Origin: an uncultured Fidelibacterota bacterium
GTDB taxonomy: Bacteria > Fidelibacterota > Marinisomatia > Marinisomatales > UBA1611
Reading direction: 5' to 3'
Length of the DNA: 64,000 nt
NCBI GenBank assembly: GCA_902611135.1
Contig: CACLYL010000002.1
Location: 167 to 64,166, forward strand
In this document: piece by piece, positions 24,280-55,631 of the stretch
Layout of the letters: each line of letters begins with the position of its first letter
Numbering within the stretch: position 1 is the stretch's first letter
Translations under genes and position numbers: made by a program
The notes under the pieces: model-generated
What the model saw: only the letters and a program-made list of their open reading frames with translations
Told to the model about the DNA's origin: nothing
Databases searched by the model: none

Positions 24280-26526
24280 ATGTTACTAAAGTGGATAAAA
24301 TATTCGCTTTTGTTAGGATTGATAAATGGGGTTTTAAACTCAAGTGATATATTTCAGTCTGTTCGCGTTTTTAACCCCAACAATGAAGAAATTACTTTAA
24401 TTTCAAATATTGGGATACCACTTGATCACATTTCAGGCAAACCCGGAATATACCTTGATATAGTTGCTACAGAGGACCAAGTGATAGAATTAATTCACAA
24501 GGAAATTGATTTTGAGATTCTAGTACCAGATTTAACTAAATATTATCAAGAAAATAATAGACCGGAAACTAACCGAGATTTTCCGCTGGGTTCAATGCTA
24601 GGTAATTATACCTTGGATGAATTGAATGAAAGATTTGATATTTTGCTTGAACAATACCCAGAAATAATTTCAGAGAGATTTATTATTGGACAATCTCTTG
24701 AAGGAAATGATATTTGGGCATTTAAAGTTTCAGACAATCCTAATGAGAATGAAAACGAACCTGAACTACTTCTAACAGGCTTGATTCATGCACGTGAGCC
24801 TCTAAGCATGATGAATATCTTTTACTTTGTACAACTATTGGCAGAAAATTATGATTCAGATCCTGAATTAAATTATTTAGTTAATAATCGAGAAATGTGG
24901 TTTATACCAGTTTTGAATCCTGATGGATATATTTATAATGAATCAATAGAGCCAAGCGGTGGTGGAATGCATCGCAAGAATCGTAAGGACACGGGCTGTG
25001 GTAATGGCACTAGTAGAGGTGTTGACTTAAACCGTAATTTTGGTTTTGGTTGGGGCTCAGATGATATAGGTTCATCACCCGATCCATGTAGTGTCGTTTA
25101 CAGAGGAGAATCAGCTTTTTCAGAGCCTGAAACTCAAATTGTTCGAGATTTTATTTTGGAACACGATTTTAAAATTATTCTTCATTACCATTCTTATTCC
25201 AATATTTACATACATCCTTTCGGTGATGGCACCGTTCCTGATGAACCAATATTAACTACTTTTCGAGAGATTGGAAATGAGATGGCTGAATACAATGGAT
25301 ATGCAGTAGGTACTGGTTTAGCAACGATTGGATACACAGTAAATGGTGATGCAGTAGATTGGACCTTTGGAGATCAGAATATAATTACCTATGTTCCAGA
25401 GATTGGTACACAAGCACAAGGGTTCTGGCCACCAGAAAACCAGGTTATTGATCTTTGTGAGGATCAAGTCCATTCAAATAAAGTAGTTTCGTTTGTTGCA
25501 GGTTGTGATTTGATAATTTATGAACATCAAATTGATCAAGATATAATTAATGGAGGTGATGAATTTGATATTGAAATTACAATCCAAAATCGAGGACTAG
25601 CTAATTCAGGGAATGAAGTTTTAGTAACTATCCAACCTTTAGATAATATGACCTCAACAGATATTGAAACCTTTTTAATAAGTGAAATTGATTCTAGAGA
25701 TTCAGATAGCTTTTCTGTCACATGCAGTATTTCAAATAGTGCAATGGATGGTTTTTATTCGGGGCTAATTATTTCTATTGAAAATGAAAACTCATACAGT
25801 AGGAATGACACGATTAAATTTATCATAGGTACCCCAGAAATATTATTTTATGATGGATTCGAACAGGGGGACAACAATTGGAATTTAAATGGAGATTGGG
25901 GATTGACTGAAGATGCACAAACCGGTATTTATGCACTTACAGATAGTCCAGAGGGTGATTATCAAGAAGCTCAAACCACTATTGCAGAGATGACTTTTGA
26001 TTTAGATCTTTCCTTGATTGCAATACCTAAAATATCTTTTCAAGCAAAGTGGGATATCGAACCCAATTATGACTTTGTACGAATTCAAGTTAATACGATT
26101 GATGAGGGGTGGATAAGTTTGGTAGGTAATTACACAAGTCCAGGAACTGGTCAGACAGCACAACCTTTTGGAGAGCCTGGATATGACGGATTTCAGGAAT
26201 CCTGGGTAGAAGAAACTATTTTATTGGATCAAATTGGAAATGTTCAAATCACAAGTTTACGGTTCATTCAAACATCTGATAATTTTGTTGAGGGCGATGG
26301 TTTTGCATTTGATGATTTTACAATTACAGGGTTTCCAAATGGTATGATGGGTGATTTTAATTTAGATTCATCTGTGGACATTTTTGACCTACTCGGGATT
26401 GCAGATGTTTTAATTTTTGGGGAAGATCCATCTAATAGTCAACTTTTTTTATGCGATTTAGATGGAAGTGGAACATTAGATATCATGGATATGATATTAC
26501 TGTCTAATATGATAATGGGATTTTAA
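24280..26526 (+). CDS. Secreted M14-family zinc carboxypeptidase with a C-terminal dockerin-type module
   Basis: 748 aa with a signal peptide. GLIHAREPLS supplies the HxxE zinc ligands, and VDLNRNF and HYHSYS are also present. The last 58 aa carry two Ca-binding-loop repeats, GDFNLDSSVDIFDLLGIADVL and CDLDGSGTLDIMDMILLSNMI. Confidence 0.8.
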   Translation: MLLKWIKYSLLLGLINGVLNSSDIFQSVRVFNPNNEEITLISNIGIPLDHISGKPGIYLDIVATEDQVIELIHKEIDFEILVPDLTKYYQENNRPETNRDFPLGSMLGNYTLDELNERFDILLEQYPEIISERFIIGQSLEGNDIWAFKVSDNPNENENEPELLLTGLIHAREPLSMMNIFYFVQLLAENYDSDPELNYLVNNREMWFIPVLNPDGYIYNESIEPSGGGMHRKNRKDTGCGNGTSRGVDLNRNFGFGWGSDDIGSSPDPCSVVYRGESAFSEPETQIVRDFILEHDFKIILHYHSYSNIYIHPFGDGTVPDEPILTTFREIGNEMAEYNGYAVGTGLATIGYTVNGDAVDWTFGDQNIITYVPEIGTQAQGFWPPENQVIDLCEDQVHSNKVVSFVAGCDLIIYEHQIDQDIINGGDEFDIEITIQNRGLANSGNEVLVTIQPLDNMTSTDIETFLISEIDSRDSDSFSVTCSISNSAMDGFYSGLIISIENENSYSRNDTIKFIIGTPEILFYDGFEQGDNNWNLNGDWGLTEDAQTGIYALTDSPEGDYQEAQTTIAEMTFDLDLSLIAIPKISFQAKWDIEPNYDFVRIQVNTIDEGWISLVGNYTSPGTGQTAQPFGEPGYDGFQESWVEETILLDQIGNVQITSLRFIQTSDNFVEGDGFAFDDFTITGFPNGMMGDFNLDSSVDIFDLLGIADVLIFGEDPSNSQLFLCDLDGSGTLDIMDMILLSNMIMGF

Positions 26527-45057: not shown

Positions 45058-46026
45058 ATGAGTTTCTTAGAAAAAGTCAAACACACCTCAGTTGCAATAA
45101 GCAAATATATAAAGAATACAGAATTATTTTATTCTCATAAATTTTCTAATATTTTAAGAAATCAAATCTGGTTTAAACAAGAGAATAAACAGCATACTGG
45201 TTCGTTCAAAATAAGAGGTGCTTTAAGTAAATTAATTTCATTATCTGAAGAAAAAGCAAAAAGAGGAGTTATTGCTGCATCAACAGGTAATCATGGTTTA
45301 GCGGTAGCATATGCTTCAAAAAAACTAGGTATTGAAAGTGAAGTTTATGTTCCAAACACAACACAAAAACATAAAGTTGAGAAAATAAAATCATTTGGTA
45401 CCAAAGTTATTTATCATGGGCAAGATTGTTTAGAGGCTGAAATTAAAGCAAGAAAAGTTTCCCAAGAAAGAAATTGTGAATATATTTCGCCCTATAATGA
45501 TTCTTATGTTATTGAAGGACAAGGAACTATAGCTGATGAAATTGCAAATCAAATAAAAAAGTTAGATATAGTAATAGTATCTGTTGGGGGTGGAGGTTTA
45601 ATTGCAGGAATCTCGCAATATTTAAAATTAAAATGGCCTGATATCCAAGTTGTAGGCTGTTCGCCTAAAAATTCTGCTGTTATGTTGCAATCAATCTTAT
45701 CAGAAGAAATTTTAGAAATAGAATCTAAATCTACTCTTTCTGATGGTACAGCTGGAGGCTTGGAAAAAAGATCAATTACGTTTCCTCTATGTAGAAGTTC
45801 TATTGATCAAAGCATTTTAGTTAGTGAAAAGGATATAAAAAAAGCCATGAAATTATACTTTAAATATGAAAATCAAATTATTGAAGGGGCAGCAGGAGTT
45901 GCCATTGCAGCACTTTTAAAATTAGATAAGGAAGTTGTTGATAAAAGAATTGGTGTTGTGATTTGTGGTGGAAATATTCAAAAAACTTTATTTAATTCTA
46001 TTGTCAATAATCAAGATAAATCTTGA
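45058..46026 (+). CDS. PLP-dependent threonine/serine dehydratase (PALP family)
   Basis: ATG 45058 lies after the terminator. Motifs are the PLP-Lys HTGSFKIRGA, ASTGNHG and the glycine loop SVGGGGLIAG. Confidence 0.8.
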   Translation: MSFLEKVKHTSVAISKYIKNTELFYSHKFSNILRNQIWFKQENKQHTGSFKIRGALSKLISLSEEKAKRGVIAASTGNHGLAVAYASKKLGIESEVYVPNTTQKHKVEKIKSFGTKVIYHGQDCLEAEIKARKVSQERNCEYISPYNDSYVIEGQGTIADEIANQIKKLDIVIVSVGGGGLIAGISQYLKLKWPDIQVVGCSPKNSAVMLQSILSEEILEIESKSTLSDGTAGGLEKRSITFPLCRSSIDQSILVSEKDIKKAMKLYFKYENQIIEGAAGVAIAALLKLDKEVVDKRIGVVICGGNIQKTLFNSIVNNQDKS

Positions 46027-49000
46027 AATATATTTTAATAGCTATATTTTCTTTTATTTTAGTAAAAAGTGAGGAAAAAAAAGACTTATATCATGATTAT
46101 TCTGATCCATTTAAGTATGTTTCATCATCAAAAATTGGTGATAATCCTTTTCCAACAAATCCTTTAAATGACCGAGCTATAGGCTATCTTTTGCAAGGTA
46201 AGGCTCAAAGTGCAATATCAAATTATGGAAATATTATCAATTGGGATGAACACCCAATGGGAATTTGGAATGGATATTCTTATTTACCTTCTGTGGCTTT
46301 TCTTGCTGGTGTTCCTGGACAAAAATATTCATCTAACTTTCAATGGGACAATGTTGAATATATCATAAACGAACAAGGAAACACATTATACGGGATTTGG
46401 GAATCAAGTGATGCTTATGATGATTGGTTTCAAAATGAGAAAAGTAATTATGTAGGAATTATATTTGAATCCAATAATGACTTTGGACTGTGGAATCCAG
46501 ATAGTATCTCAAAAATGGAAACGCTTGATCAAATCAATGATGCCTATCAATGGATAGTTGATAATAATAATAATAAAATTATATTATCATCCAGAGAGGA
46601 TCTTGATCCAAATAAATCATCTTCGAGGATTGGATTTATTTACCCTTGGGCTTTAAGACCATCCTTAATAAGCAGAGAGGAACAATTTGACTTTTATGAT
46701 TATGGGCCTGATCTTCAAGAATGGACTGATGACGATAATTATATGTATTACGGATTTAATGTATCTGAAAGTTGGCTTTCAAGAATACCGGGTTCCATAA
46801 ATGGAGAATGGCAAGCATCAACTATGGCAAGAGTAAATACTCACAACACAACAGTTAAGAATGGTGAGATTTTTGGAGATACGTATGTAACCGATGCAAG
46901 CGATACTTACCCGCTTTTAGCTCACAGTGCTTTTTCTGATACTTGGCCAATACATTTAAATGAAGAAAATGGGAACTATGAACCTCTTTGGCCTGGTTGG
47001 TGGGCTCAAGATTATAATATTAATCTTGCTGGATGTTCCCAATCTAGGAAAGATCCAGACTGCTGGGAAGATGTCCCTGGCAGATTTATCTCTGATATGG
47101 ATATTTACATGGAATTTGATGATAGATGGGCTCACAGAGGTAATATGGTAAATACAAATAATGAATACGAACAAACAGGCTACCCAATGGGCTTAAAGAT
47201 TATGGCTGAGGCCCACTCTTATGGTGTTTCATATGCAGAAGATATATTGTTCGTTACTGTTAAAGTTAGGAACGAAAGTGGAGATTGGTGCGCAGAGGAC
47301 GAAAACGGCCAACCAGTATTAGACCAATTTGGTGAGCAAAAGTGTGGCGAAGCTATGATTATGCCCGATGGCACAAAATTAAATAACGGCTTAGGATTTG
47401 ATTACCAAGGTACTAGCTTAGGATTTTATTTTGATGCCGATGTTTTGGTTGGGGATCAAAGTGGATATAATGCGTCATATCATACGAATGATGATGATTT
47501 TATGAAATATTATTGGGATATTTTCGAAGTAAATAATGAAAGAATGCTCATTTCAATGGCAATGGTAGGAGATTATGACGGTCAAAGTGGAGTTGGTGGG
47601 TATGCGATGAATGGACAGAGCAACGGTAGTTCAGATTTTGGAATTGTAGCCACTCAACTATTAGACTCTCCAAAAGCAACAGATCCTGTTGATTTAGACC
47701 AAGATGGAACAATTGATATTTTTCCTGGAGAACCACTTAAAATGACTGATTGGCATTGGTTTGATTGGTATAGCAGACCAGGAGTTCCACAAATGGAAAG
47801 CAATGCTAGCAGTTGTTATACTGGTGCAGAGGGATGCCCTCAAGCTAGAAACAAAGAAGAAATAATGTATAAAATTATGACAGGCGATACGGTTAACCTT
47901 AGTGAAAATGAAAAGCAATGGCATTTTCATACTTCGGATCCAGGCACAGATTTGAACTCAGAATTAAATCCGCATTTTGATTCCTTAGAAGGTTTACTTG
48001 AGGAACCAGCTTTTCTCAGAGATCCAGAAGGGCTAGATTGTTCAATTTTTCTGAGTTGTGGTCCATTTGATCTTCCTGTTGGTAGAGAGGTACCTTTTTC
48101 TTTTTGCATTATATTTGGCCAAAATGAAACAGATTTGATAAACAATGCAAGGTTTGCACAAGTAATGTATAATTCAAAATACCAAGGATTTACGCCTCCA
48201 TCTCGGCCAAATGTGTATGCTGAATCAGATACAGGATCCATAAAGTTATATTGGGATGATATTGCTGAAATATCTACGGATGTTCTAACTGGATATTCAG
48301 ATTTTGAAGGGTATAAGATATATAAAAGTATAGATGGTGGAGAAAATTGGGGAGAAGCGTCCAAAAGAATATATACTACGGAAGGTTTATTCGTTGGTTG
48401 GATCCCTTATAAACAATATGATTTGTCTGCAATTGAGGATTCTCTGCATTGTGTTTATTCAAATAATTATAATTGTCCAAAAACCCTAAGGCGTAATCAT
48501 TCCATAAAAGGACCTGATCCTTATTCCCCATGGTTTAATCTTGGTGATGATACTGGATTAGATATAATAAGATTAGAAGAGAAAGATTGGTTAGAAATAA
48601 ACAATACTGTTTATAAATATATGTATGAAGATAAAGATGTTGTTGATGGCATGGAATATACCTACTCAATTGTTGCCTACGATATGGGAGTCGAGCCGAC
48701 TTATCAAACAAATTATATTAAACTAGGTAATGATGAATTCCAATCAGTTATAGATACCAATTTTTCAAACCCAGACCAATGGGCAAATCCAGATGGCTAT
48801 GCTTCAATAGAAAATTCTAAAGGAACTACAATTTTAGATAGAAATTTTGTTCAAGTTTATCCCGGGATTAAACCTCAGGAAAATTTAAACAAAGTGAGGG
48901 TTGTTCCAAATCCATATCTTGCAAGGTCAAACTTTAAAGAATCTGAATTTTTGAGAAGGATCAGGTTTATTAACCTACCTTCAAAGTGTGTGATTAAAAT

Positions 49001-49196
49001 TTTCACTCTTTCAGGAGAGTTAGTAACTAAGATTGATCATAATAATGAAAATTCTGGTAATGAATGGTGGGACCTTCGTACAATAAACAATCAGGAGGCT
49101 GCACCTGGATTATACATTTATCATATCCAACAGATGGATCCTTATGATAATAGTCAAATGCAAGAATTAGTTGGTAAATTTGCCATAGTCCGTTGA
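46023..49196 (+). CDS. Large secreted protein of unknown function with a variant C-terminal sorting/Ig-like domain
   Basis: 1057 aa with a TTG start that overlaps the previous stop, and a signal peptide MKYILIAIFSFILV. The C-terminus (VVPNPYLARSNF ... IKIFTLSGELV ... APGLYIYHIQ ... GKFAIVR) resembles a T9SS CTD / FlgD-Ig-like module but not the YPNPFN type. Confidence 0.6.
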   Translation: MKYILIAIFSFILVKSEEKKDLYHDYSDPFKYVSSSKIGDNPFPTNPLNDRAIGYLLQGKAQSAISNYGNIINWDEHPMGIWNGYSYLPSVAFLAGVPGQKYSSNFQWDNVEYIINEQGNTLYGIWESSDAYDDWFQNEKSNYVGIIFESNNDFGLWNPDSISKMETLDQINDAYQWIVDNNNNKIILSSREDLDPNKSSSRIGFIYPWALRPSLISREEQFDFYDYGPDLQEWTDDDNYMYYGFNVSESWLSRIPGSINGEWQASTMARVNTHNTTVKNGEIFGDTYVTDASDTYPLLAHSAFSDTWPIHLNEENGNYEPLWPGWWAQDYNINLAGCSQSRKDPDCWEDVPGRFISDMDIYMEFDDRWAHRGNMVNTNNEYEQTGYPMGLKIMAEAHSYGVSYAEDILFVTVKVRNESGDWCAEDENGQPVLDQFGEQKCGEAMIMPDGTKLNNGLGFDYQGTSLGFYFDADVLVGDQSGYNASYHTNDDDFMKYYWDIFEVNNERMLISMAMVGDYDGQSGVGGYAMNGQSNGSSDFGIVATQLLDSPKATDPVDLDQDGTIDIFPGEPLKMTDWHWFDWYSRPGVPQMESNASSCYTGAEGCPQARNKEEIMYKIMTGDTVNLSENEKQWHFHTSDPGTDLNSELNPHFDSLEGLLEEPAFLRDPEGLDCSIFLSCGPFDLPVGREVPFSFCIIFGQNETDLINNARFAQVMYNSKYQGFTPPSRPNVYAESDTGSIKLYWDDIAEISTDVLTGYSDFEGYKIYKSIDGGENWGEASKRIYTTEGLFVGWIPYKQYDLSAIEDSLHCVYSNNYNCPKTLRRNHSIKGPDPYSPWFNLGDDTGLDIIRLEEKDWLEINNTVYKYMYEDKDVVDGMEYTYSIVAYDMGVEPTYQTNYIKLGNDEFQSVIDTNFSNPDQWANPDGYASIENSKGTTILDRNFVQVYPGIKPQENLNKVRVVPNPYLARSNFKESEFLRRIRFINLPSKCVIKIFTLSGELVTKIDHNNENSGNEWWDLRTINNQEAAPGLYIYHIQQMDPYDNSQMQELVGKFAIVR

Positions 49197-49631: not shown

Positions 49632-50150
49632 TTGATTAATAAAAATACTTTCAAAAGTCTACTTCCGTATCTCTTGTTTAATCTTTGTTTGCTCTTTTCT
49701 CAAACTAATTGGGAAAGAGGAAATCTTAAAAAGATTGATGAGTTAAACTTTAAATTAAACCTCAGGGGGACTGATGATGATGCATGGGGAAGGAAATTAA
49801 ACAATTACATAGAGCTTAGATTTTTGGAAAATAAAGTAGTTTTTAATAATTCTCAAATGCCAAAAATGGTTGTTGATGTAAATATTATTGATTCAAGAGT
49901 TGAAGAGGTATCCTCATTTTTAATTATCTTTTCAATTTACAACTATAGTATTCCAGAATATGAATATTACGAATCAATGTCAAAAAATAAGTTAACAAAA
50001 AAAATAATGACGAGTAAAATCTGGTCTAGAGAAATTATGGGTCAAACTTCATCAATTACATTATATAAAGATATTGAAAAGAACGTAAATAAACTCATTT
50101 CAGACTTTTTTTCTCAATGGTACACAGACAATCCCATGAAACAATTTTAA
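49632..50150 (+). CDS. Hypothetical secreted protein
   Basis: 172-aa ORF with a TTG start and a hydrophobic N-terminus. I recognised no family. Confidence 0.4.
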   Translation: MINKNTFKSLLPYLLFNLCLLFSQTNWERGNLKKIDELNFKLNLRGTDDDAWGRKLNNYIELRFLENKVVFNNSQMPKMVVDVNIIDSRVEEVSSFLIIFSIYNYSIPEYEYYESMSKNKLTKKIMTSKIWSREIMGQTSSITLYKDIEKNVNKLISDFFSQWYTDNPMKQF

Positions 50151-50239: not shown

Positions 50240-51262
50240 ATGTACTTGCTCCGAGGATTTATCATATTTCATCTCTTTTACTTTTGCTGTTTTGCGGAAG
50301 TGACAAAATCTGTTTCTTTAAAAACAGGTAATAAAATGGCCGTTTTAAAATTCGAAGGTTGGTCAATTTCAAATCCGTTGGCTTCTTTTTTAACTGAGGA
50401 ACTCAGAAAAACCATTCGTGAGTTAGATGTTTTTCTAGTGCAAGATAGTGGAATTACAAATCAAGTAAATATTTTTCTACCCAGAAGTGAGGATTATTGG
50501 GCATGTTGGGACAAAAAATGTGCAATAGATCTTGGAAGACGTTTAAAAGTCAACTATGTGATTGCGGGAAATATTCAAAAAAAAGATGAGGATAACTTTT
50601 TAATTAGTGGGAGACTCTTTTCTGTTGATATGGAGATGTTAATGAATGAGTTTGTGGTAAATAGCAGCGGGATTACAGATAGTTTATTATTAGAAATGAA
50701 AAAGATGGCTTTTAATGTAAGTGGTCTTTCGATACCCGATTCAATTTATGCTGAGAGAAGTATAATTGAAACTGAAGTTGAAGAAAAACAAAAACGTCAG
50801 AGGATTTGGGGGTTGCAGTTTCCATCAATACCAAATAAAGTTAAAGCATTAATGATGTCAACAGTTTTACCTGGAAGTGGTCAAATCTGGGCAGAAAAAA
50901 AATATCCTGGGTATAGTTTTATGGGTATAGAGAGTGCGCTTGGAATAAGTGCATGGATAGCTTACAAGCAGTATTATTCATCGTGGGGAGATTTTGAATC
51001 AAATTATAATGCTTATCAAAGAGGTACTGATCCACGAGAATTATTGGATTTGAGACCAAAAGTTATTAAGTATGCTCAGGAGACAGCAAGATACAATGCC
51101 TTTATGAAAAACCTTAGAACAATTGGATTTTCGATCTGGGTTGTAAACATGATACATGCATATTTGGTTACTCCAGGAGATGATTTTTTTGATGGGGAAT
51201 ATTTTTTTGATGTAGAGTACAATAATGATGAAAATCAATTTCAATTAAACTTAAACTTTTAA
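50240..51262 (+). CDS. Hypothetical envelope protein
   Basis: 340 aa with a signal peptide. The N-terminal half resembles periplasmic LpoB/CsgG-type folds (MAVLKFEG ... YVIAGNIQK ... ISGRLFSVD). The C-terminal half has two TM-like segments with LPGSGQIW. Weak. Confidence 0.45.
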   Translation: MYLLRGFIIFHLFYFCCFAEVTKSVSLKTGNKMAVLKFEGWSISNPLASFLTEELRKTIRELDVFLVQDSGITNQVNIFLPRSEDYWACWDKKCAIDLGRRLKVNYVIAGNIQKKDEDNFLISGRLFSVDMEMLMNEFVVNSSGITDSLLLEMKKMAFNVSGLSIPDSIYAERSIIETEVEEKQKRQRIWGLQFPSIPNKVKALMMSTVLPGSGQIWAEKKYPGYSFMGIESALGISAWIAYKQYYSSWGDFESNYNAYQRGTDPRELLDLRPKVIKYAQETARYNAFMKNLRTIGFSIWVVNMIHAYLVTPGDDFFDGEYFFDVEYNNDENQFQLNLNF

Positions 51263-51265
51263 CTA

Positions 51266-51799
51266 ATGAAACTGTTAAGAATAATCCTTCTACTTTATTT
51301 ATTTATAATTAATGCCTGTGAGGAGGCTATATATAAATTTGATAATGTCAATGATCCATTTAATATGGATCTTGAGCCTCCAGCTTTATTTTTTCATCCT
51401 AGTGAGATAAAAACATTCGTAAATAGTAATGATTCACTAGAAGTTTACGGATATAAATTAGATTCCTCAGCTGCGGCTCATTTAGAGATCATTTATGATT
51501 ATGGAAGTATAATTGTGGATTCAGTATCTCCGGGGCCATTTTTTCAAAATTCAAATGATCCAATTGAGGTAGTTGTTGAAGATGGAAATAAAATTCATAT
51601 TTATTTATATTACCTTCCTGACCTAATGATGGATCAAAATACAGGAGGGACGTGGTCATTAGCAAAAATTTATTTTTCTACAACAAATGCTGCAGGCACA
51701 TATGGTCTTGAATTTGGTTCCAATACAAAATTAAGAAACGCAGAAAATGATTCAGTAAGAATAAATACTTTTGGTATAGGTTCAATCCATGTTCAATAA
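51266..51799 (+). CDS. Small lipoprotein with a cohesin-like beta-sandwich pattern
   Basis: 177 aa with lipobox LFIINAC. The strand pattern LEVYGYKLDSSAAAHLEIIYDYGSIIVDSVSPGPFF ... NKIHIYLYY ... GTWSLAKIYFSTTNAAGTYGLEFGS ... NAENDSVRINTFGIGSIHV parallels type I cohesins (..CDFVYSYDPNVLEIIEIEPGDII ... IVFLF ... GVFATIVAKV..APNG.SVIKF ... FFDGGVNV). This rests on recall, not an HMM hit. Confidence 0.45.
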   Translation: MKLLRIILLLYLFIINACEEAIYKFDNVNDPFNMDLEPPALFFHPSEIKTFVNSNDSLEVYGYKLDSSAAAHLEIIYDYGSIIVDSVSPGPFFQNSNDPIEVVVEDGNKIHIYLYYLPDLMMDQNTGGTWSLAKIYFSTTNAAGTYGLEFGSNTKLRNAENDSVRINTFGIGSIHVQ

Positions 51800-54700
51800 C
51801 ATATTTATTTTTAAATGTCTGTTACTTTTAATTCTTAATGCAGTCCAAGGTCAAGAGTGTTTTGATTTTGAATTAGCTGAATCTGATTTTCCATTTGATC
51901 ATCTAGCAGATTTTACTTCTGATGAAGATATTGGTCAAAATTGGGGATTAGGGACACTTGGTTCAGGGGAAATCGGTGCTTTAGGTGGGAACGATTTTGC
52001 ATATAAATTAACGTTGCTTAATCCTGCGTTAATCTATGTAACAACATGTGATGCGGAGACAGATGTTGATGTTGAAATTGCAATTTTCAATAGCTGTGAT
52101 TCAACGGACTGGTTATTGTATCAAGATGATTCTAACCTCCCTCTATATTATCCTGATGGAACTTCAGAGCAGTATGACTTTCAATGTATTTCTGGTTATG
52201 AGGAGAATCCCACCTATGCAAATATGCTACCTCGTTTAGAACTAGAAAGTGGTTCATATTATATTGTTGTAAGTGATCGGGGGTATTCAGGAACTGTAAA
52301 AACTTACATTGGTTATTCCTTATTGGTTGACTCTACAACCACAAATGAGGATTATACTGAAATTAATTACCATTTTAGCGAGGGTGTGTTTGGGGGAGAA
52401 TATCAGGATGTTTACAATGGCAATGGTATCCCATTGGAAATAAATGATTATAGTATATCAATTAATCCAAACGGTGGTGACGCCGATGAAGCATACATAA
52501 CCTCCCTAACCACAATGTCAGGAGATCTTCTATCGATTGGAGAATCAAGCATTAAAGTTAATATAAATTACCCAGATACTCCAACAGGGGTAGAGGAAGT
52601 AACAATTGGACCAGCGTCTGTATCATCAATTTTTAATAGTGTGGGAATTCCTTTATTAAATGTTGAGGGAATTACCATTGAACTAGTTGATGCTTTAAGT
52701 CCTAGAATAACAAATTCACAGCCTAGCAATAATGAAATTGGAATTCCAGTTGATGAAAATATAATTTTAACATTCTCAGAAAATGTTCAATATGATGATA
52801 GTGAAATAAATAATGTGAATGCACAAAATTGTTTCAGAATTGAAAGTGTAGAAACAAATGAAAATCTAGATTTTTCTATAACAAATCTAGATGATACAAT
52901 TTTTACATTAAATCCTATAAATAATTTTCCGGATTATACATATATAAGACTAATAATCCTTGAAACAATAACAGATACAAACGATAATCAATTTGCATCG
53001 GATACAATTATGTTCCGAACAGAAGACATCTCACCACCAATAATTAATCAAAGTTTACTTGCATCAACAAATGAATTTATAACGATTAGCTTTAATGAAG
53101 GTGTCTACTCCTCTGAGCAAGGATCAGGCGCAATAAATTCTTCTGATTTCAGCTTGATATTTGATCCAAATGGTGGGAATTGTACCAATGCAAACTTATC
53201 GGCAATAACTAAAATAGATGGAGAGGAGCTAGAGGGGGGTGAATCCTCTGCAAAATTCTTTTTACAGTTAGCTGGTTCGCCGAGTGGTGTAGAGACTTTT
53301 TCGTTAAGCCCAACAAATAGCTCTTCAATTTTTGATTTTGAAGGAAATGGGATGTTAAGTATTTCATCTACTGATAATTTAACTTTGTTTGCATCGGCTA
53401 TAATGGAAACGTTTTATTTAGCAGATAGTAATGATTATTTAGATTTAACCTTTTCAATAGGCGTTTATGGGGATGAAAATCAATTCCAACCTGTCTCATT
53501 GTCCGACCTTAATTTGACATTAAACTCAAATGGAAGTTCGGTATTAACAGGACAAATAGTAAGCTTAAGTAATATTAATAATAATCCGCTTCTGGGTGGT
53601 GAAGAGACTATACGATTATATTTAAATTTCAATGAACAACCATCGGGAGTTGAGTTTATAGAAATTTCTCCAACTAGTAATGGAAGTTTATTTAGTATTT
53701 CAGGAGTTCCATTGCCTGTAACTGAAAATTCTGGACCTATTAATTTAATAGATCAAAGGCCACCTCAGGTGGATACAAACATATCAGATGGTTCAGAAAA
53801 CATAATAGAAAGTGAGCCCCTAAGAATTACATTTAGTGAAAATATTTATGATCCTGAAACTGGAAACTTAATGACATCGGAGCAATTAGGGGCTTATATT
53901 ACATTAAGAGATGATGCCTCTGAGGCAGATATTCCTTTTTTAGTAGACTACTCTAATCCACCAGACCTTTACATTATTCCTGAGCAAGATTTTGATAGTG
54001 ATCAAATAGTATACTATGCTTTTAATGGGTTACTTCAAGATGAGGCGGGGAACCTAGCTGATTTTAACTTTAACGCAACTTTTATGGTTAGAGATTATTT
54101 GCCTCCTACAGTTGACTCTTCAATTCTTGCTTTAGATAATTCATATATCGATATAATTTTTGATGATGGTATTTATGGCGCAGTAGAGTTTGACGGGCAA
54201 AATTTTGTAGGGATTTCACCGGTTGATAGAAATGATTTTTCCGTTGAGTTTGAGCCAAATGGTAGTGAAATAAACATTGTTAATATTGCCAGCATTACAA
54301 GGACAGATAGTAACTTTTTGATTGGGGGAGAGAATGAGATTAGAGTTAATTTTGAATATAATGGGACTCCAAATGGGGACGAGACACTGCAACTAATTGT
54401 TCAGCCTGGGGTTACAATGTATGATGAAATTGGTAATCAGCTTACCGATACCGTAACCATCATGAATCCAGACACTCTGTATGATATTTTAGCACCCACT
54501 ATTGATATGGTTTCTTTGTCTGTAGATTCATTTATTACTTTAATGGAAGATAGGCCAATAATGTTCACTTTTAATGAAAAAATTGATTCGATTGAATTTA
54601 ATATAAGCTCAACGGTTTTAGATTCAATTAACTATGAATACGAGATGGCCAGCTCTGATTCATCAATAGAAATTACCTTAAAACCTCCCTTTGTCAGTTA

Positions 54701-55631
54701 TGATCATATAAGTATTAATTTTTCATATTTAGAGGATTTGGCTGGATTGTCAACTGTTGATATAACTTATACGTATAAAACTCCAATACTTGGGGATTAT
54801 GATTTTGATAATGCAATTAATTATCACGATCTATGGGATTTAGTTGAAAATTGGGAATTAAATAATATGGATTATGAGATCGGTCCAATTTCTGGTCAGG
54901 TACCTCATGTCATTCCTCAATTGGATAGTAAATTCGATATAGAAGATGGAATGGCTTTTGTTCAAATGTGGTCATGGTATCAGAAAGAATTTGGTGAAAT
55001 AATCGAGGATTCTACCCAAGTTGGGCGCATTTTAAATACAAAAACAAGCAAAAATAATTATATAGTATACATAGACAGTAATATTGTTGCTGGGCAATTG
55101 ACTTTCACCTATGACTCTGGAATAAAACCTTTACAATTTTTAAGCTATCCTCAAAAAAATGATAATTTATTTTTAGAATTTCATAAATCAATAGAAGGAT
55201 TTTCGAAAATAGAATTTGCTAGACATGATCATCAAAAAAAGGATTCTATATTATTTGATTTGAATCAGCACAGCTATGTAAAAATATTTTATAATTTAGA
55301 ATCTTCAACAAAATTAATCGAAAGAAAAGGAATGATTAATTACAAAAATAATCTAGTCCCTGAAAAAATCAAGTTATATCCAGCTTATCCAAACCCGTTT
55401 AATCCTTCGACTACTTTAAAGTTTGATATTCCTTTTAATTTGGATAATAATATTTTTTTAGAAGTATTCGATGTGCGTGGTAGTAGGGTAGATTATTTAG
55501 ATTTAGGTTTGATGAGCCCAGGTACTCATAAAGTAAAATGGGATGGACGACGACATTCCTCAGGCGTATATATTATTAAATTAATAATAGGGTTCTCAAG
55601 GCAGACACAAAAGTTACTATTGATAAAATAA
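51789..55631 (+). CDS. Giant secreted multi-Ig-domain (SbsA/Big_5-like) surface protein with a dockerin-like segment and a T9SS C-terminal sorting domain
   Basis: 1280 aa with a signal peptide.
- The N-terminal domain is PPC-like.
- There are at least five Big_5-type domain starts: SPRITNSQPSNNEIGIPVDENIILTFSENV, ISPPIINQS, RPPQVDTNISDGSE ... LRITFSENI, LPPTVDSS and LAPTIDMVS.
- There are four copies of an approximately 90-aa module.
- A dockerin-like segment reads GDYDFDNAINYHDLWDLV ... LDSKFDIEDGMAFVQMW.
- The C-terminus reads YPAYPNPFNPSTTLKFDI ... GVYIIKL. Confidence 0.7.
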   Translation: MFNNIFIFKCLLLLILNAVQGQECFDFELAESDFPFDHLADFTSDEDIGQNWGLGTLGSGEIGALGGNDFAYKLTLLNPALIYVTTCDAETDVDVEIAIFNSCDSTDWLLYQDDSNLPLYYPDGTSEQYDFQCISGYEENPTYANMLPRLELESGSYYIVVSDRGYSGTVKTYIGYSLLVDSTTTNEDYTEINYHFSEGVFGGEYQDVYNGNGIPLEINDYSISINPNGGDADEAYITSLTTMSGDLLSIGESSIKVNINYPDTPTGVEEVTIGPASVSSIFNSVGIPLLNVEGITIELVDALSPRITNSQPSNNEIGIPVDENIILTFSENVQYDDSEINNVNAQNCFRIESVETNENLDFSITNLDDTIFTLNPINNFPDYTYIRLIILETITDTNDNQFASDTIMFRTEDISPPIINQSLLASTNEFITISFNEGVYSSEQGSGAINSSDFSLIFDPNGGNCTNANLSAITKIDGEELEGGESSAKFFLQLAGSPSGVETFSLSPTNSSSIFDFEGNGMLSISSTDNLTLFASAIMETFYLADSNDYLDLTFSIGVYGDENQFQPVSLSDLNLTLNSNGSSVLTGQIVSLSNINNNPLLGGEETIRLYLNFNEQPSGVEFIEISPTSNGSLFSISGVPLPVTENSGPINLIDQRPPQVDTNISDGSENIIESEPLRITFSENIYDPETGNLMTSEQLGAYITLRDDASEADIPFLVDYSNPPDLYIIPEQDFDSDQIVYYAFNGLLQDEAGNLADFNFNATFMVRDYLPPTVDSSILALDNSYIDIIFDDGIYGAVEFDGQNFVGISPVDRNDFSVEFEPNGSEINIVNIASITRTDSNFLIGGENEIRVNFEYNGTPNGDETLQLIVQPGVTMYDEIGNQLTDTVTIMNPDTLYDILAPTIDMVSLSVDSFITLMEDRPIMFTFNEKIDSIEFNISSTVLDSINYEYEMASSDSSIEITLKPPFVSYDHISINFSYLEDLAGLSTVDITYTYKTPILGDYDFDNAINYHDLWDLVENWELNNMDYEIGPISGQVPHVIPQLDSKFDIEDGMAFVQMWSWYQKEFGEIIEDSTQVGRILNTKTSKNNYIVYIDSNIVAGQLTFTYDSGIKPLQFLSYPQKNDNLFLEFHKSIEGFSKIEFARHDHQKKDSILFDLNQHSYVKIFYNLESSTKLIERKGMINYKNNLVPEKIKLYPAYPNPFNPSTTLKFDIPFNLDNNIFLEVFDVRGSRVDYLDLGLMSPGTHKVKWDGRRHSSGVYIIKLIIGFSRQTQKLLLIK

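Follow-up and report, generated by a model that had tools for sequence, protein, structure and literature searches.

Organization of the Locus

The window analysed here is a stretch of 64,000 nucleotides from a Marinimicrobia (SAR406) MAG, whose assembly is 58% complete. On its plus strand lies an ORF of 177 aa, with its ATG at 51266 and its stop at 51799, that encodes a small cohesin protein. The ORF starts after a gap of 3 nt from the stop of an upstream DUF5683-like gene, and its final 11 nt overlap the start of a downstream ORF for a giant protein of 1280 aa (ATG 51789). As the preliminary description of this DNA had it, the 177-aa ORF stands directly upstream of a giant protein with a dockerin-like module. 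This giant also carries a type IX secretion system (T9SS) C-terminal sorting domain (CTD). The features discussed below are as follows.

49632–50150, plus strand: hypothetical protein of 172 aa whose N-terminus is hydrophobic; its gene opens the conserved syntenic block
50240–51262, plus strand: DUF5683-like / LIC11435-like membrane protein of 340 aa (Pfam and NCBIfam)
51266–51799, plus strand: putative cohesin lipoprotein of 177 aa (ORF; Pfam, Foldseek and family profile)
51266–51319, plus strand: predicted signal peptide (residues 1–17) and lipidation Cys18 (sequence; AF2 helix)
51377–51796, plus strand: cohesin beta-sandwich domain, residues ~38–177 (AF2, TM-scores and Pfam)
51789–55631, plus strand: predicted giant surface protein of 1280 aa (Big_5, TIGR04183 and synteny)
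54774–55001, plus strand: divergent dockerin-like module of 76 aa, residues 996–1071 of the giant (conservation and hhalign)
55374–55628, plus strand: T9SS type A C-terminal sorting domain, residues 1196–1280 of the giant (TIGR04183; Por_Secre_tail)
26350–26526, plus strand: canonical C-terminal dockerin of an M14 carboxypeptidase, gene 24280–26526 (Pfam Dockerin_1)

The 172-aa protein has no match in Pfam or NCBIfam, and in 28/28 related loci its gene precedes that of the cohesin protein. The 340-aa protein matches Pfam DUF5683 (27.2 bits against a cut-off of 26.7) and the NCBIfam family LIC11435_fam (E 1e-5). Its gene likewise adjoins the cohesin gene in all 28 loci and recurs in a paralogous triple in genome G240; at the locus of G071 it is missing and the cohesin–giant pair is still there.

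A Small Lipoprotein with a Cohesin Fold

The cohesin protein begins with MKLLRIILLLYLFIINA followed by C, which reads as MKLLR, a 12-residue hydrophobic stretch and I-N-A-C18. The Cys18 codon is TGT at 51317–51319, the acidic residues E19 and E20 come next, and the AlphaFold2 (AF2) model places a helix at residues 2–16. The lipobox I-N-A-C departs from the textbook L-[AS]-[GA]-C, with an atypical Asn at position -2. Cys18 is invariant in all 17 aligned homologues, residue -1 is always S or A, and a lipobox Cys is also present in paralogues (LSNC in G240, LLGC in G071). The lipobox proposed earlier is thus upheld by an invariant cysteine behind a hydrophobic helix, and the ORF has, as judged from its sequence, a lipoprotein-type N-terminus, that of a predicted signal peptidase II substrate. 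The mature N-terminus would be C-E-E-A in the window copy and C-E-D-A, C-Q-D-A or C-D-E-A in homologues. In Bacteroidetes, surface lipoproteins carry the export signal C-X-K-(D/E)2, or alternatively Q-A-(D/E)2 or S-D-D-D-D (PMC5080379). The residues after Cys18 are acidic, yet they do not match C-X-K-(D/E)2, a signal that was defined in Bacteroidetes and may not be that of Marinimicrobia. Between the lipid-bearing Cys and the sandwich lies a conserved segment, DNxNDPxNMDLEPPALFFHP, which has no counterpart in known cohesins.

Pfam Cohesin (PF00963) is the sole Pfam match of the window protein (E 0.0088, 16.7 bits; 16.8 bits in the genome scan), spanning residues 69–164 and model positions 31–128 of 139. 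The gathering threshold of the model is 24.1 bits, and the window copy falls below it. Five direct orthologues from sister genera, which are also found by the cohesin-family profile, stand above this threshold (G047:C13, 25.9; G267:C249, 25.5; G177:C10, 24.7; G218:C39, 24.6; G183:C32, 34.7), and paralogues reach up to 42.3 bits. All 17 homologues match Cohesin, the one family they have in common (best E 8.8e-5), and no NCBIfam family covers the ORF. The Pfam architecture of the window protein comprises one cohesin and no carbohydrate-binding module (CBM). A family profile of the 17 homologues, run against 1.84 billion proteins, retrieves P0118, with nine Pfam cohesins (E 8.9e-9), and P0147, with eight cohesins, a CBM3 and a dockerin (E 1.4e-6), as well as P0078 and P0109, each with a cohesin above threshold. 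Profile searches of the sequences of solved structures with the cohesin family and with the giant C-terminus gave matches at chance level only, for example to a decapping enzyme and a pyrophosphatase.

The AF2 model of the cohesin protein (pLDDT 78.4, pTM 0.70) contains 11 strands between residues 40 and 176 and can be superposed on solved cohesins, which are nine-stranded flattened beta-sandwiches of the jelly-roll type. In a Foldseek search of the PDB, the top 50 matches are all cohesins of type I, II or III or of the non-cellulosomal kind (E 7.8e-10 to 3e-5; target-normalised TM 0.6–0.73), with no CBM or generic Ig domain among them. The best structural match is a cohesin of Archaeoglobus fulgidus (PDB 2xdh, E 7.8e-10), and clostridial anchoring scaffoldins take ranks 2, 4 and 6, with sequence identities of 11–16%. 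The ORF at 51266–51799 therefore has a genuine cohesin domain, and its likeness to known cohesins is beyond chance. The cohesin likeness read from the letters alone is borne out by the orthologue scores and by the exclusively cohesin structural matches. Of the checks proposed with it, the PF00963 search gave Cohesin as the sole match, below threshold in the window copy and above it in orthologues, and the structural search showed that the fold is not a generic Ig/FN3 one.

The Giant Protein and Its Dockerin-like Module

The giant protein has a signal peptide, Big_5/Ig repeats (Big_5, E 8.6e-14 in Pfam), the dockerin-like module, an Ig-like domain and a T9SS type A CTD. The CTD is matched by TIGR04183 at 26.1 bits against a cut-off of 23. 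The Pfam model Por_Secre_tail (PF18962) scores 26.2 bits against 27 in the window copy and matches 16/16 orthologues (best E 7.5e-10). The same assembly encodes 48 CTD-bearing ORFs. In 4/4 near-complete genomes from the same family, a match to the sortase PorU exceeds the cut-off; none was found in the window's own assembly, which is 58% complete. In G071, the one streamlined genome of ~1 Mb examined for this, only three CTD proteins and no full-length PorU were found. Searches for PorU and PorV-like proteins gave matches, and the Pfam models SprA_N and GldM_1st had none in this bacterial family, in a comparison where no control genome contains a T9SS. The host was earlier described as a non-cellulolytic marine bacterium of the FCB group that uses T9SS, and this description fits a member of Marinimicrobia with so many T9SS-type cargo proteins.

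The module was compared with the dockerin pattern D-x-[DN]-x-D-G-x-[IV]-[DN]-x-x-D plus a helix, in two tandem loop–helix repeats. Loop 1 is GDYDFDNAINYHD (D-Y-D-F-D-N-A-I-N-Y-H-D) followed by a helix, and is canonical with all ligand positions present. A linker, ..EIGPxSGxxPH.., leads to loop 2, which is truncated (D-S-K-F-D-I-E-D, with the helix GMAFVQMWSW) and keeps only positions 5, 9 and 12, ligand positions 1 and 3 being lost; its lineage consensus is P-D-G-x-[FY]-D-x-x-D. The spacer is ~12 residues longer than in the dockerins of the lineage. The module falls in the most conserved stretch of the giant, with identities of 0.57–0.70 across residues 961–1080 against a mean of 0.485.

Pfam Dockerin_1 (PF00404) gives no match at E up to 10 in the window module and two divergent paralogues, and none in 16 orthologous giant C-termini. 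An hhalign comparison of 28 diverse modules with 33 dockerins of the same family nevertheless aligns both repeats over 59 columns, with a probability of 78% and E 1.8e-5, against at most 2.9% in 60 column-shuffled controls. A narrower profile of 16 module sequences aligned loop 1 only (63%), and the broader profile of 28 was needed for both repeats. In the AF2 model, the module shows two helices at a pLDDT below 50, and Foldseek finds only generic tandem Ig/FN3 matches for the last 300 aa of the giant, so that this model neither supports nor refutes a dockerin fold. For the domain after the module, Foldseek and Pfam searches of the giant C-terminus gave no evidence of a cohesin. The two-loop segment noticed earlier is therefore present, with a canonical first loop, and its second loop is truncated and goes unrecognised by Pfam. 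We describe the module as dockerin-like in character, a designation drawn from its motif and profile alignment.

Conservation of the Gene Pair

The order DUF5683-like gene, cohesin gene, giant gene is kept in 28/28 loci of different Marinimicrobia species, and wherever a locus extends far enough, the cohesin gene is followed by an orthologue of the giant. The start of the giant overlaps or abuts the stop of the cohesin gene, including in loci whose giant has acquired an additional LamG domain. In many loci a 0.8-kb "gap" between the cohesin and giant matches suggested a further gene; it proved to be this LamG-type addition at the N-terminus of the giant ORF. Two NAT52 loci were considered as paralogues; since their flanking genes are identical in kind at both, they more likely represent two populations in one bin. 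True paralogous cohesin/module pairs do occur within one genome (G240), and the pair is kept in the complete 0.97-Mb genome G071, where the lipoprotein has a PKD-PKD-cohesin architecture. The preliminary description had a single locus to go by; the 28 loci and the paralogous pairs across the order make the pairing with the giant gene considerably stronger.

At the level of the order, the module is present in 116/161 genomes, usually 2–6 kb downstream of a cohesin-family gene. Among the matches listed, 46 of 118 cohesin-family matches have a same-strand module 1.9–12 kb downstream (median 3.9 kb), and 5/5 apparently unpaired cohesin matches in contiguous genomes proved to be paired when searched directly. 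Family f3 has the cohesin family in 19/30 genomes, the module in 25/29 and a Pfam dockerin in 0/30, the cohesin and dockerin counts being given also for genus g15. In family f13 the corresponding counts are 0/5, 1/10 and 5/5. Genomes of families f17, f19 and f20 each show between 7 and 20 or more dockerin matches, and this cohesin family is absent from them. The pair is also present in ~1-Mb genomes without any Pfam dockerin. Across genomes, the cohesin family tracks the divergent module of the giant, not Pfam dockerins. The relation is not one to one throughout, since some genomes have more module-bearing giants than genes of the cohesin family.

Canonical Dockerins and Other Cohesin Proteins

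The M14 carboxypeptidase of the window (Peptidase_M14, E 2.1e-60) has no T9SS CTD and ends in a true dockerin, as had been claimed. Dockerin_1 matches residues 691–745 with 23.1 bits when the protein is searched and 27.8 bits in the genome scan, above the cut-off of 22.9, and the two canonical loops are GDFNLDSSVDIFD and CDLDGSGTLDIMD. The genome scan found five dockerin-bearing ORFs in the window's own assembly, three of them above the Pfam cut-off. Their products are two peptidases (M14 and C25), a redoxin, a LamG protein and an esterase-like/PKD protein; none of the five is a glycoside hydrolase. One cohesin, no CBM and no dockerin-tagged glycoside hydrolase do not amount to a cellulosome. 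Most dockerins of the lineage are located at the extreme C-terminus of proteins without a T9SS CTD, and such proteins consequently need some receptor. Relatives encode T9SS proteins of ~1125 aa with several "GGFQFD" cohesin modules, as well as Doc-Coh-CTD proteins. No orthologue of the multi-cohesin protein was found in the window's own assembly, which may only reflect its completeness of 58%. These multi-cohesin and Doc-Coh-CTD proteins are better candidate receptors for the canonical dockerins than the cohesin studied here, and the M14 dockerin is a possible but less likely ligand for it.

Proposed Mechanism

The lineage-wide adjacency of the cohesin gene to that of a module-bearing giant most likely points to a plug-and-socket surface anchor. 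We give somewhat better than an even chance to the best reading of the data, that the protein is a cargo-specific cohesin/dockerin-like anchor for the neighbouring giant and not a general enzyme scaffold. On this reading, the ORF at 51266–51799 would encode a small membrane-anchored lipoprotein whose entire mature part is one cohesin, and it would form the receptor half of a two-gene pair. The pair would be co-transcribed, and probably translationally coupled, together with the DUF5683-like membrane protein. The giant Ig-repeat surface protein encoded by the overlapping downstream gene would be exported via the type IX pathway, its 76-aa module being followed directly by a membrane-proximal Ig-like domain and then by the presumably cleavable C-terminal sorting domain. 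The cohesin would bind this module, probably in a calcium-dependent manner through the intact loop 1, and so would tether the giant to the outer membrane after removal of the sorting domain. Gene adjacency is evidence of functional linkage, not of binding; what we infer is the binding itself, its dependence on calcium, exposure of the lipoprotein on the outer leaflet and its role as an anchor.

A broader role was proposed at the outset, in which the lipoprotein is a general single-cohesin anchor that displays enzymes through canonical C-terminal dockerins. It could coexist with binding of the giant, and its candidate ligands here would be the M14 carboxypeptidase, the C25 gingipain-like peptidase and the redoxin/TSP3 protein. 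The cohesin ORF is the only Pfam-cohesin match in an assembly with five dockerin ORFs, the cohesin family and 5–17 dockerins occur together in 25/25 genomes of the same bacterial family, and CTD-less proteins with C-terminal dockerins do need a receptor. The suggested genome-wide census of dockerins thus succeeded in finding these ORFs, but their distribution over the lineage is decoupled from the cohesin family (g15, f13, f17, f19 and f20). The cohesin follows the module instead, as the counts for f3 and f13 indicate, and the multi-cohesin T9SS and Doc-Coh-CTD proteins of relatives are more obvious receptors. The proposal of a general scaffold for dockerin-tagged enzymes such as the M14 protein was not sustained by these data, and we regard it as unlikely.

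Two further explanations give the lipoprotein another role. T9SS cargo folds in the periplasm, and a periplasm-facing lipoprotein might act as a cargo adaptor or chaperone, keeping hold of the giant's folded C-terminal region ahead of type IX export or in the course of it. Such an adaptor would suit the tight, probably translationally coupled pairing with one cargo gene and the position of the putative binding module right beside the sorting domain. To our knowledge, however, all characterised cohesins act outside the cell. The residues after Cys18 are ambiguous here, as they differ from the known surface-export signal but, being acidic, loosely resemble the Bacteroidetes surface signals SDDDD and SDDFE (PMC5080379). 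We consider a periplasmic role quite improbable. Alternatively, the cohesin-fold lipoprotein might bind something other than a dockerin, such as a glycan, the DUF5683-like protein or another part of the giant, the motif then being a calcium-binding structural element. The module does fail Pfam Dockerin_1 and is poorly modelled, the conserved segment between the lipid-bearing Cys and the sandwich may be a separate interaction site, and the DUF5683-like gene co-occurs in most loci. Nevertheless, cohesins alone match the fold, with no CBM or generic Ig domain among the matches; conservation in the giant peaks at the module, both repeats of which align with dockerins of the lineage; and in G071 the pair persists without the DUF5683-like gene. 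A non-dockerin ligand is accordingly, in our estimation, very improbable.

Comparison with Known Systems

Non-cellulosomal cohesins have been surveyed by Peer et al. 2009, FEMS Microbiol Lett 291:1 (as cited in PMC8542988). Like them, the present protein has one lone cohesin beta-sandwich and comes from an organism without cellulose degradation, and their dockerin-bearing partners are likewise non-cellulolytic. It differs in that the cohesin appears to constitute the whole mature lipoprotein, in a fixed overlapping pair with a giant T9SS-type cargo, and in that the dockerin-like module of the partner is too divergent for Pfam. The anchors OlpA and OlpC of Clostridia (PDB 3ul4 and 4dh2) offer a parallel in which one envelope-fixed cohesin docks a dockerin-bearing protein, as this cohesin would do. 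OlpA and OlpC attach to a Gram-positive wall through SLH domains, whereas this cohesin would be held in a diderm envelope by its N-terminal lipid. They dock enzymes or scaffoldins that belong to a polysaccharide-degrading complex; this cohesin probably docks a single adhesin-like giant encoded next to it.

In Flavobacterium, cargo with a type B CTD, such as SprB, is partnered by PorP/SprF-like proteins, beta-barrels of the outer membrane by which type B CTDs are recognised. The lipoprotein would resemble them as a cargo-specific envelope protein encoded beside a giant T9SS adhesin to hold it on the cell. There is no homology between the two, and in contrast to PorP/SprF the cohesin lipoprotein would recognise a separate dockerin-like module, on a cargo whose CTD is of type A (TIGR04183).

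A cellulosome-like cohesin–dockerin system has already been inferred in the non-cellulolytic FCB phylum Cloacimonadota, in "Ca. Stygibacter" (Williams et al. 2021, PMC8542988). In this FCB-group organism, peptidases (S8 and C25) bear dockerin tags and there is a cohesin protein with a link to the type IX CTD (PMC8542988), and the relatives of the present MAG similarly have multi-cohesin CTD proteins. The scaffoldin of "Ca. Stygibacter", however, is a protein of 3,755 aa with tandem cohesins and CBMs (PMC8542988), whereas the pair described here would comprise a single-cohesin lipoprotein and one cargo. In the literature searched, no report of a cohesin–dockerin system in Marinimicrobia was found.

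Implications for Marinimicrobia

In the dark and low-oxygen ocean, Marinimicrobia (SAR406) rank among the uncultured bacteria of greatest abundance. It is possible, if somewhat doubtful, that across the SAR406 order to which this genome belongs dedicated cohesin lipoproteins fix giant type IX cargo through a divergent dockerin module beside the sorting domain. The retention of the pair in ~1-Mb genomes, including G071 with its few CTD proteins and lack of a full-length PorU, fits this reading, under which such lipoproteins may provide a cargo-specific, protein–protein alternative to sortase-mediated attachment to lipopolysaccharide. If the reading is true, the cohesin–dockerin principle, known from enzyme complexes in Gram-positive bacteria that degrade cellulose, would extend to diderm bacteria, where it would anchor giant adhesin-like proteins, and it would be linked to type IX secretion. 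The module would then represent a new, Pfam-invisible dockerin subtype with members in those 116 of the 161 searched genomes of the order, and the pair would offer a new orthogonal cohesin/dockerin couple for protein engineering.

A single-cohesin lipoprotein and its giant neighbour

The protein encoded at 51266-51799 is a cohesin, and the overlapping downstream gene carries a dockerin-like module. The features are:

51266-51799, + strand: cohesin lipoprotein ORF, 177 aa
51789-55631, + strand: giant surface protein, 1280 aa, with signal peptide, Big_5/Ig repeats and type A sorting domain
54774-55001, + strand: dockerin-like module (residues 996-1071 of the giant), sequence YKTPILGDYDFDNAINYHDLWDLVENW...EIGPISGQVPHVIPQLDSKFDIEDGMAFVQMWSWYQ

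The cohesin ORF is confirmed as real; a DUF5683-like gene (340 aa) stops 3 nt before its start, and its 3' end overlaps the ATG of the giant by 11 nt. Its N-terminus, MKLLRIILLLYLFIINA-C18-EE, reads like that of a protein processed by signal peptidase II. Across 17 aligned homologues (45-93% identity) Cys18 never varies, the -1 residue is Ser or Ala throughout and acidic residues predominate at the two positions that follow Cys18. The lipobox claimed in the preliminary description is borne out, with an atypical Asn at -2, and judged from sequence the N-terminus is of the lipoprotein type. These acidic residues do not correspond to the surface-export signal published for Bacteroidetes (PMC5080379). 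The segment that links the lipid Cys to the beta-sandwich (residues 19-45, window 51320-51400), Y-x-F-D-N-x-N-D-P-x-N-M-D-L-E-P-P-A-L-F-F-H-P, is nearly invariant family-wide, partially conserved in paralogues and without counterpart in known cohesins. AlphaFold2 confidence is low over its first ~14 residues (19-32), and the segment may be a second interaction site.

Four independent lines agree on the cohesin identity suggested by the preliminary description. The window protein has a single Pfam match, Cohesin (PF00963; E 0.0088, 16.7 bits vs a gathering score of 24.1), and no other family is shared by all 17 homologues, where it reaches E 8.8e-5 at best. The window copy is below threshold, but direct orthologues from 26 scanned genomes of its bacterial family are above it at 24.6-34.7 bits, and paralogues score as high as 42 bits. 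When a profile built from the 17 homologues was run against 1.84 billion representative proteins, only 190 were retrieved at E <= 1e-3, including a canonical scaffoldin with nine Pfam cohesins (E 8.9e-9) and another with eight cohesins, a CBM3 and a dockerin (E 1.4e-6). The 50 best PDB matches of the AlphaFold2 model (pLDDT 78, pTM 0.70) are all cohesins, led by a non-cellulosomal Archaeoglobus fulgidus cohesin (2xdh, E 7.8e-10), with the OlpC/OlpA single-cohesin anchors and CipA cohesins next; the generic Ig/FN3 fold that the preliminary description gave as a refutation was not seen.

The sorting domain of the giant scores 26.1 bits against TIGR04183 (cut-off 23). In the two-loop dockerin-like segment described earlier, loop 1 is complete, with all ligand positions of the dockerin calcium loop filled, and resembles the first loops of dockerins in the same genome (GDLNYDEKVDIYD, GDFNLDSSVDIFD). 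Loop 2 is reduced to positions 5, 9 and 12, and reads P-D-G-x-[FY]-D-x-x-D in more distant members. Pfam matches to the module were absent from the window copy, 16 orthologues and divergent paralogues, and AlphaFold2 gives two helices with pLDDT below 50. A profile of 28 diverse modules aligns with a profile of 33 genuine same-family dockerins at 78% probability (E 1.8e-5); the alignment covers 59 columns and keeps both repeats in register, and none of sixty column-shuffled controls exceeds 2.9%. The module is therefore termed divergent dockerin-like, and homology to dockerins is probable. Residues 961-1080, which contain it, are the conservation peak of the giant (identity 0.57-0.70 vs a mean of 0.485), and conservation is lowest in the Ig-like domain behind them (0.32-0.38).

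A conserved gene pair

The conserved pairing of these genes is the strongest result. The order orf172 (a 172-aa gene, 49632..50150), DUF5683-like gene, cohesin is kept in 28/28 related loci, drawn from Candidatus Neomarinimicrobiota/Marinimicrobia MAGs and one single-cell genome. The giant orthologue comes next in every locus of sufficient length, starting at or within the cohesin ORF end even where an N-terminal LamG domain has been added. Every one of the 25 sampled genomes of the same bacterial family encodes a member of the cohesin family, which is also widespread in the order but rare in the rest of the phylum (89 of 301 genomes overall). The module is found in 116 of 161 genomes searched in the order, each time within an ORF of roughly 900-6000 aa. 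Among the matches listed, 46 of 118 cohesin-family matches are followed on the same strand by a module at a distance of 1.9-12 kb (median 3.9 kb); many of the others lie at contig ends or in places outside the matches listed, and all five apparently unpaired cases in contiguous genomes proved paired on direct search.

One genome (G240) holds two diverged triples of DUF5683-like gene, lipoprotein and giant. In the complete, streamlined 0.97-Mb genome G071 (genus g15; locus L065:3619-9763), a lipoprotein whose cohesin is preceded by a Gly-rich linker and two PKD domains overlaps a 1717-aa module-bearing giant, which is among only three CTD (type IX C-terminal sorting domain) proteins detected there; full-length PorU was not found in this genome.

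The NAT52 MAG contains two full versions of the locus (L009, L025) with the same flanking genes and cohesins 69% and 45% identical to that of the window, more likely two populations binned together than a duplication. The syntenic block is headed by a 1057-aa secreted protein (46023-49196; TIGR04183 weak, 16.5 bits vs a cut-off of 23), whose 68-83% identity across related loci is far above the conservation of the giant.

Canonical dockerins and type IX secretion

The host assembly is a MAG of 1.36 Mb in 89 contigs (32% GC, 58% complete). The C-terminal dockerin noted earlier in the M14 carboxypeptidase (24280-26526) is Pfam-significant. Further dockerin-bearing ORFs of this genome, none of those found being a glycoside hydrolase, are:

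C22:2072-5674: 1200-aa C25 (gingipain/PorU-family) peptidase with propeptide and NIDO-like domain
LamG-dockerin-CTD protein
esterase-like/PKD-dockerin-CTD protein
redoxin/TSP3 protein

The C25 peptidase terminates in its dockerin, with no sorting domain at that position. A dockerin-like match at C4:12398-12511 (20.6 bits), its frame broken by two TAG stops, may represent a decayed gene or have arisen by chance.

At least 48 ORFs of the assembly end in a type IX sorting domain, an unusually heavy secreted and surface protein load. PorU sortase is above its curated cut-off in 4/4 near-complete relatives from the same family, whereas a search of the incomplete host assembly did not find it. PorV-like proteins are numerous and PorU is present in a family where Pfam GldM_1st and SprA_N gave no match (11 genomes of family f1 plus the host genome, searched without a positive-control genome); either the core parts have diverged beyond the reach of such models, or the secretion apparatus itself is different.

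Candidate ligands of the lipoprotein cohesin

The comparative distribution separates the two candidate ligands, module and Pfam dockerin; it is read as a pattern and not a statistic because kin are not independent.

Table. Genomes with a match / genomes searched, by bacterial family; module counts cover f3 and f13.
Family; cohesin family; 76-aa module; Pfam dockerin
f3 (genus g15); 19/30; 25/29; 0/30
f13; 0/5; 1/10; 5/5
f17; 0/14; –; 14/14
f19; 0/8; –; 8/8
f20; 0/3; –; 3/3

The sister families f17, f19 and f20, of the same class and with ~1.4-4.0-Mb genomes, show a very large dockerin expansion, with 7 to 20 or more scored matches per genome and up to 277 first-look candidates; the phylum survey detected no member of the lipoprotein cohesin family in them.

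The preliminary description had proposed a display scaffold for dockerin-tagged enzymes and adhesins. A general scaffold role of this kind could coexist with anchoring of the giant and is unlikely, as the cohesin family tracks the module and not Pfam dockerins, and relatives encode separate candidate receptors with cohesins. Same-family relatives have scaffoldin-like CTD proteins of ~1125 aa that contain several cohesin modules of the 'GGFQFD' type and are the likely receptor for the canonical dockerins of the lineage; a search of the 58% complete host assembly gave no orthologue. One example (L073:2444-5797, G267 contig C13) has about five 'VGGFQFDV / IVGGLQFDI' cohesin-like modules, two of which pass the Pfam threshold, and similar ORFs of ~1110-1160 aa occur in 12 or more genomes of this family. 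In another recurrent architecture a single polypeptide carries a dockerin, then a cohesin or cohesin-like sandwich, then a sorting domain (C4:17136-18584 and C5:35929-38145 in the host genome; L067:706-1965). The cohesin part passes Pfam in relatives (43.6 bits in G217:C77), and these proteins could chain to one another. Both architectures are more natural candidate receptors for canonical C-terminal dockerins. A periplasmic secretion adaptor is a slightly less probable role for the lipoprotein than the general scaffold, and a cohesin fold with a non-dockerin ligand is more doubtful again.

From the established domain identities, lipoprotein-type N-terminus, overlapping conserved gene pair and co-distribution, it appears on balance likely, if only slightly so, that the lipoprotein is a cargo-specific anchor for the giant. 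Its cohesin would bind the module, which directly precedes the presumed membrane-proximal Ig-like domain and the sorting domain, probably in a calcium-dependent manner. With the lipoprotein presumably in the outer leaflet, this grip would keep the giant attached to the outer membrane once it has been exported by the type IX pathway and has lost its sorting domain.

Cohesins and dockerins outside cellulosomes are well documented (Peer et al. 2009, as cited in PMC8542988; PDB 2xdh), and in Cloacimonadota dockerin-tagged peptidases have been inferred alongside a cohesin scaffoldin that bears a type IX sorting domain (PMC8542988). Our literature search found no paper joining dockerins with Marinimicrobia, SAR406 or Marinisomatota. 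What appears to be new is the single-cohesin lipoprotein, its fixed pairing, with probable translational coupling, to one giant cargo of type IX secretion, and a Pfam-invisible dockerin subtype across a Marinimicrobia order.
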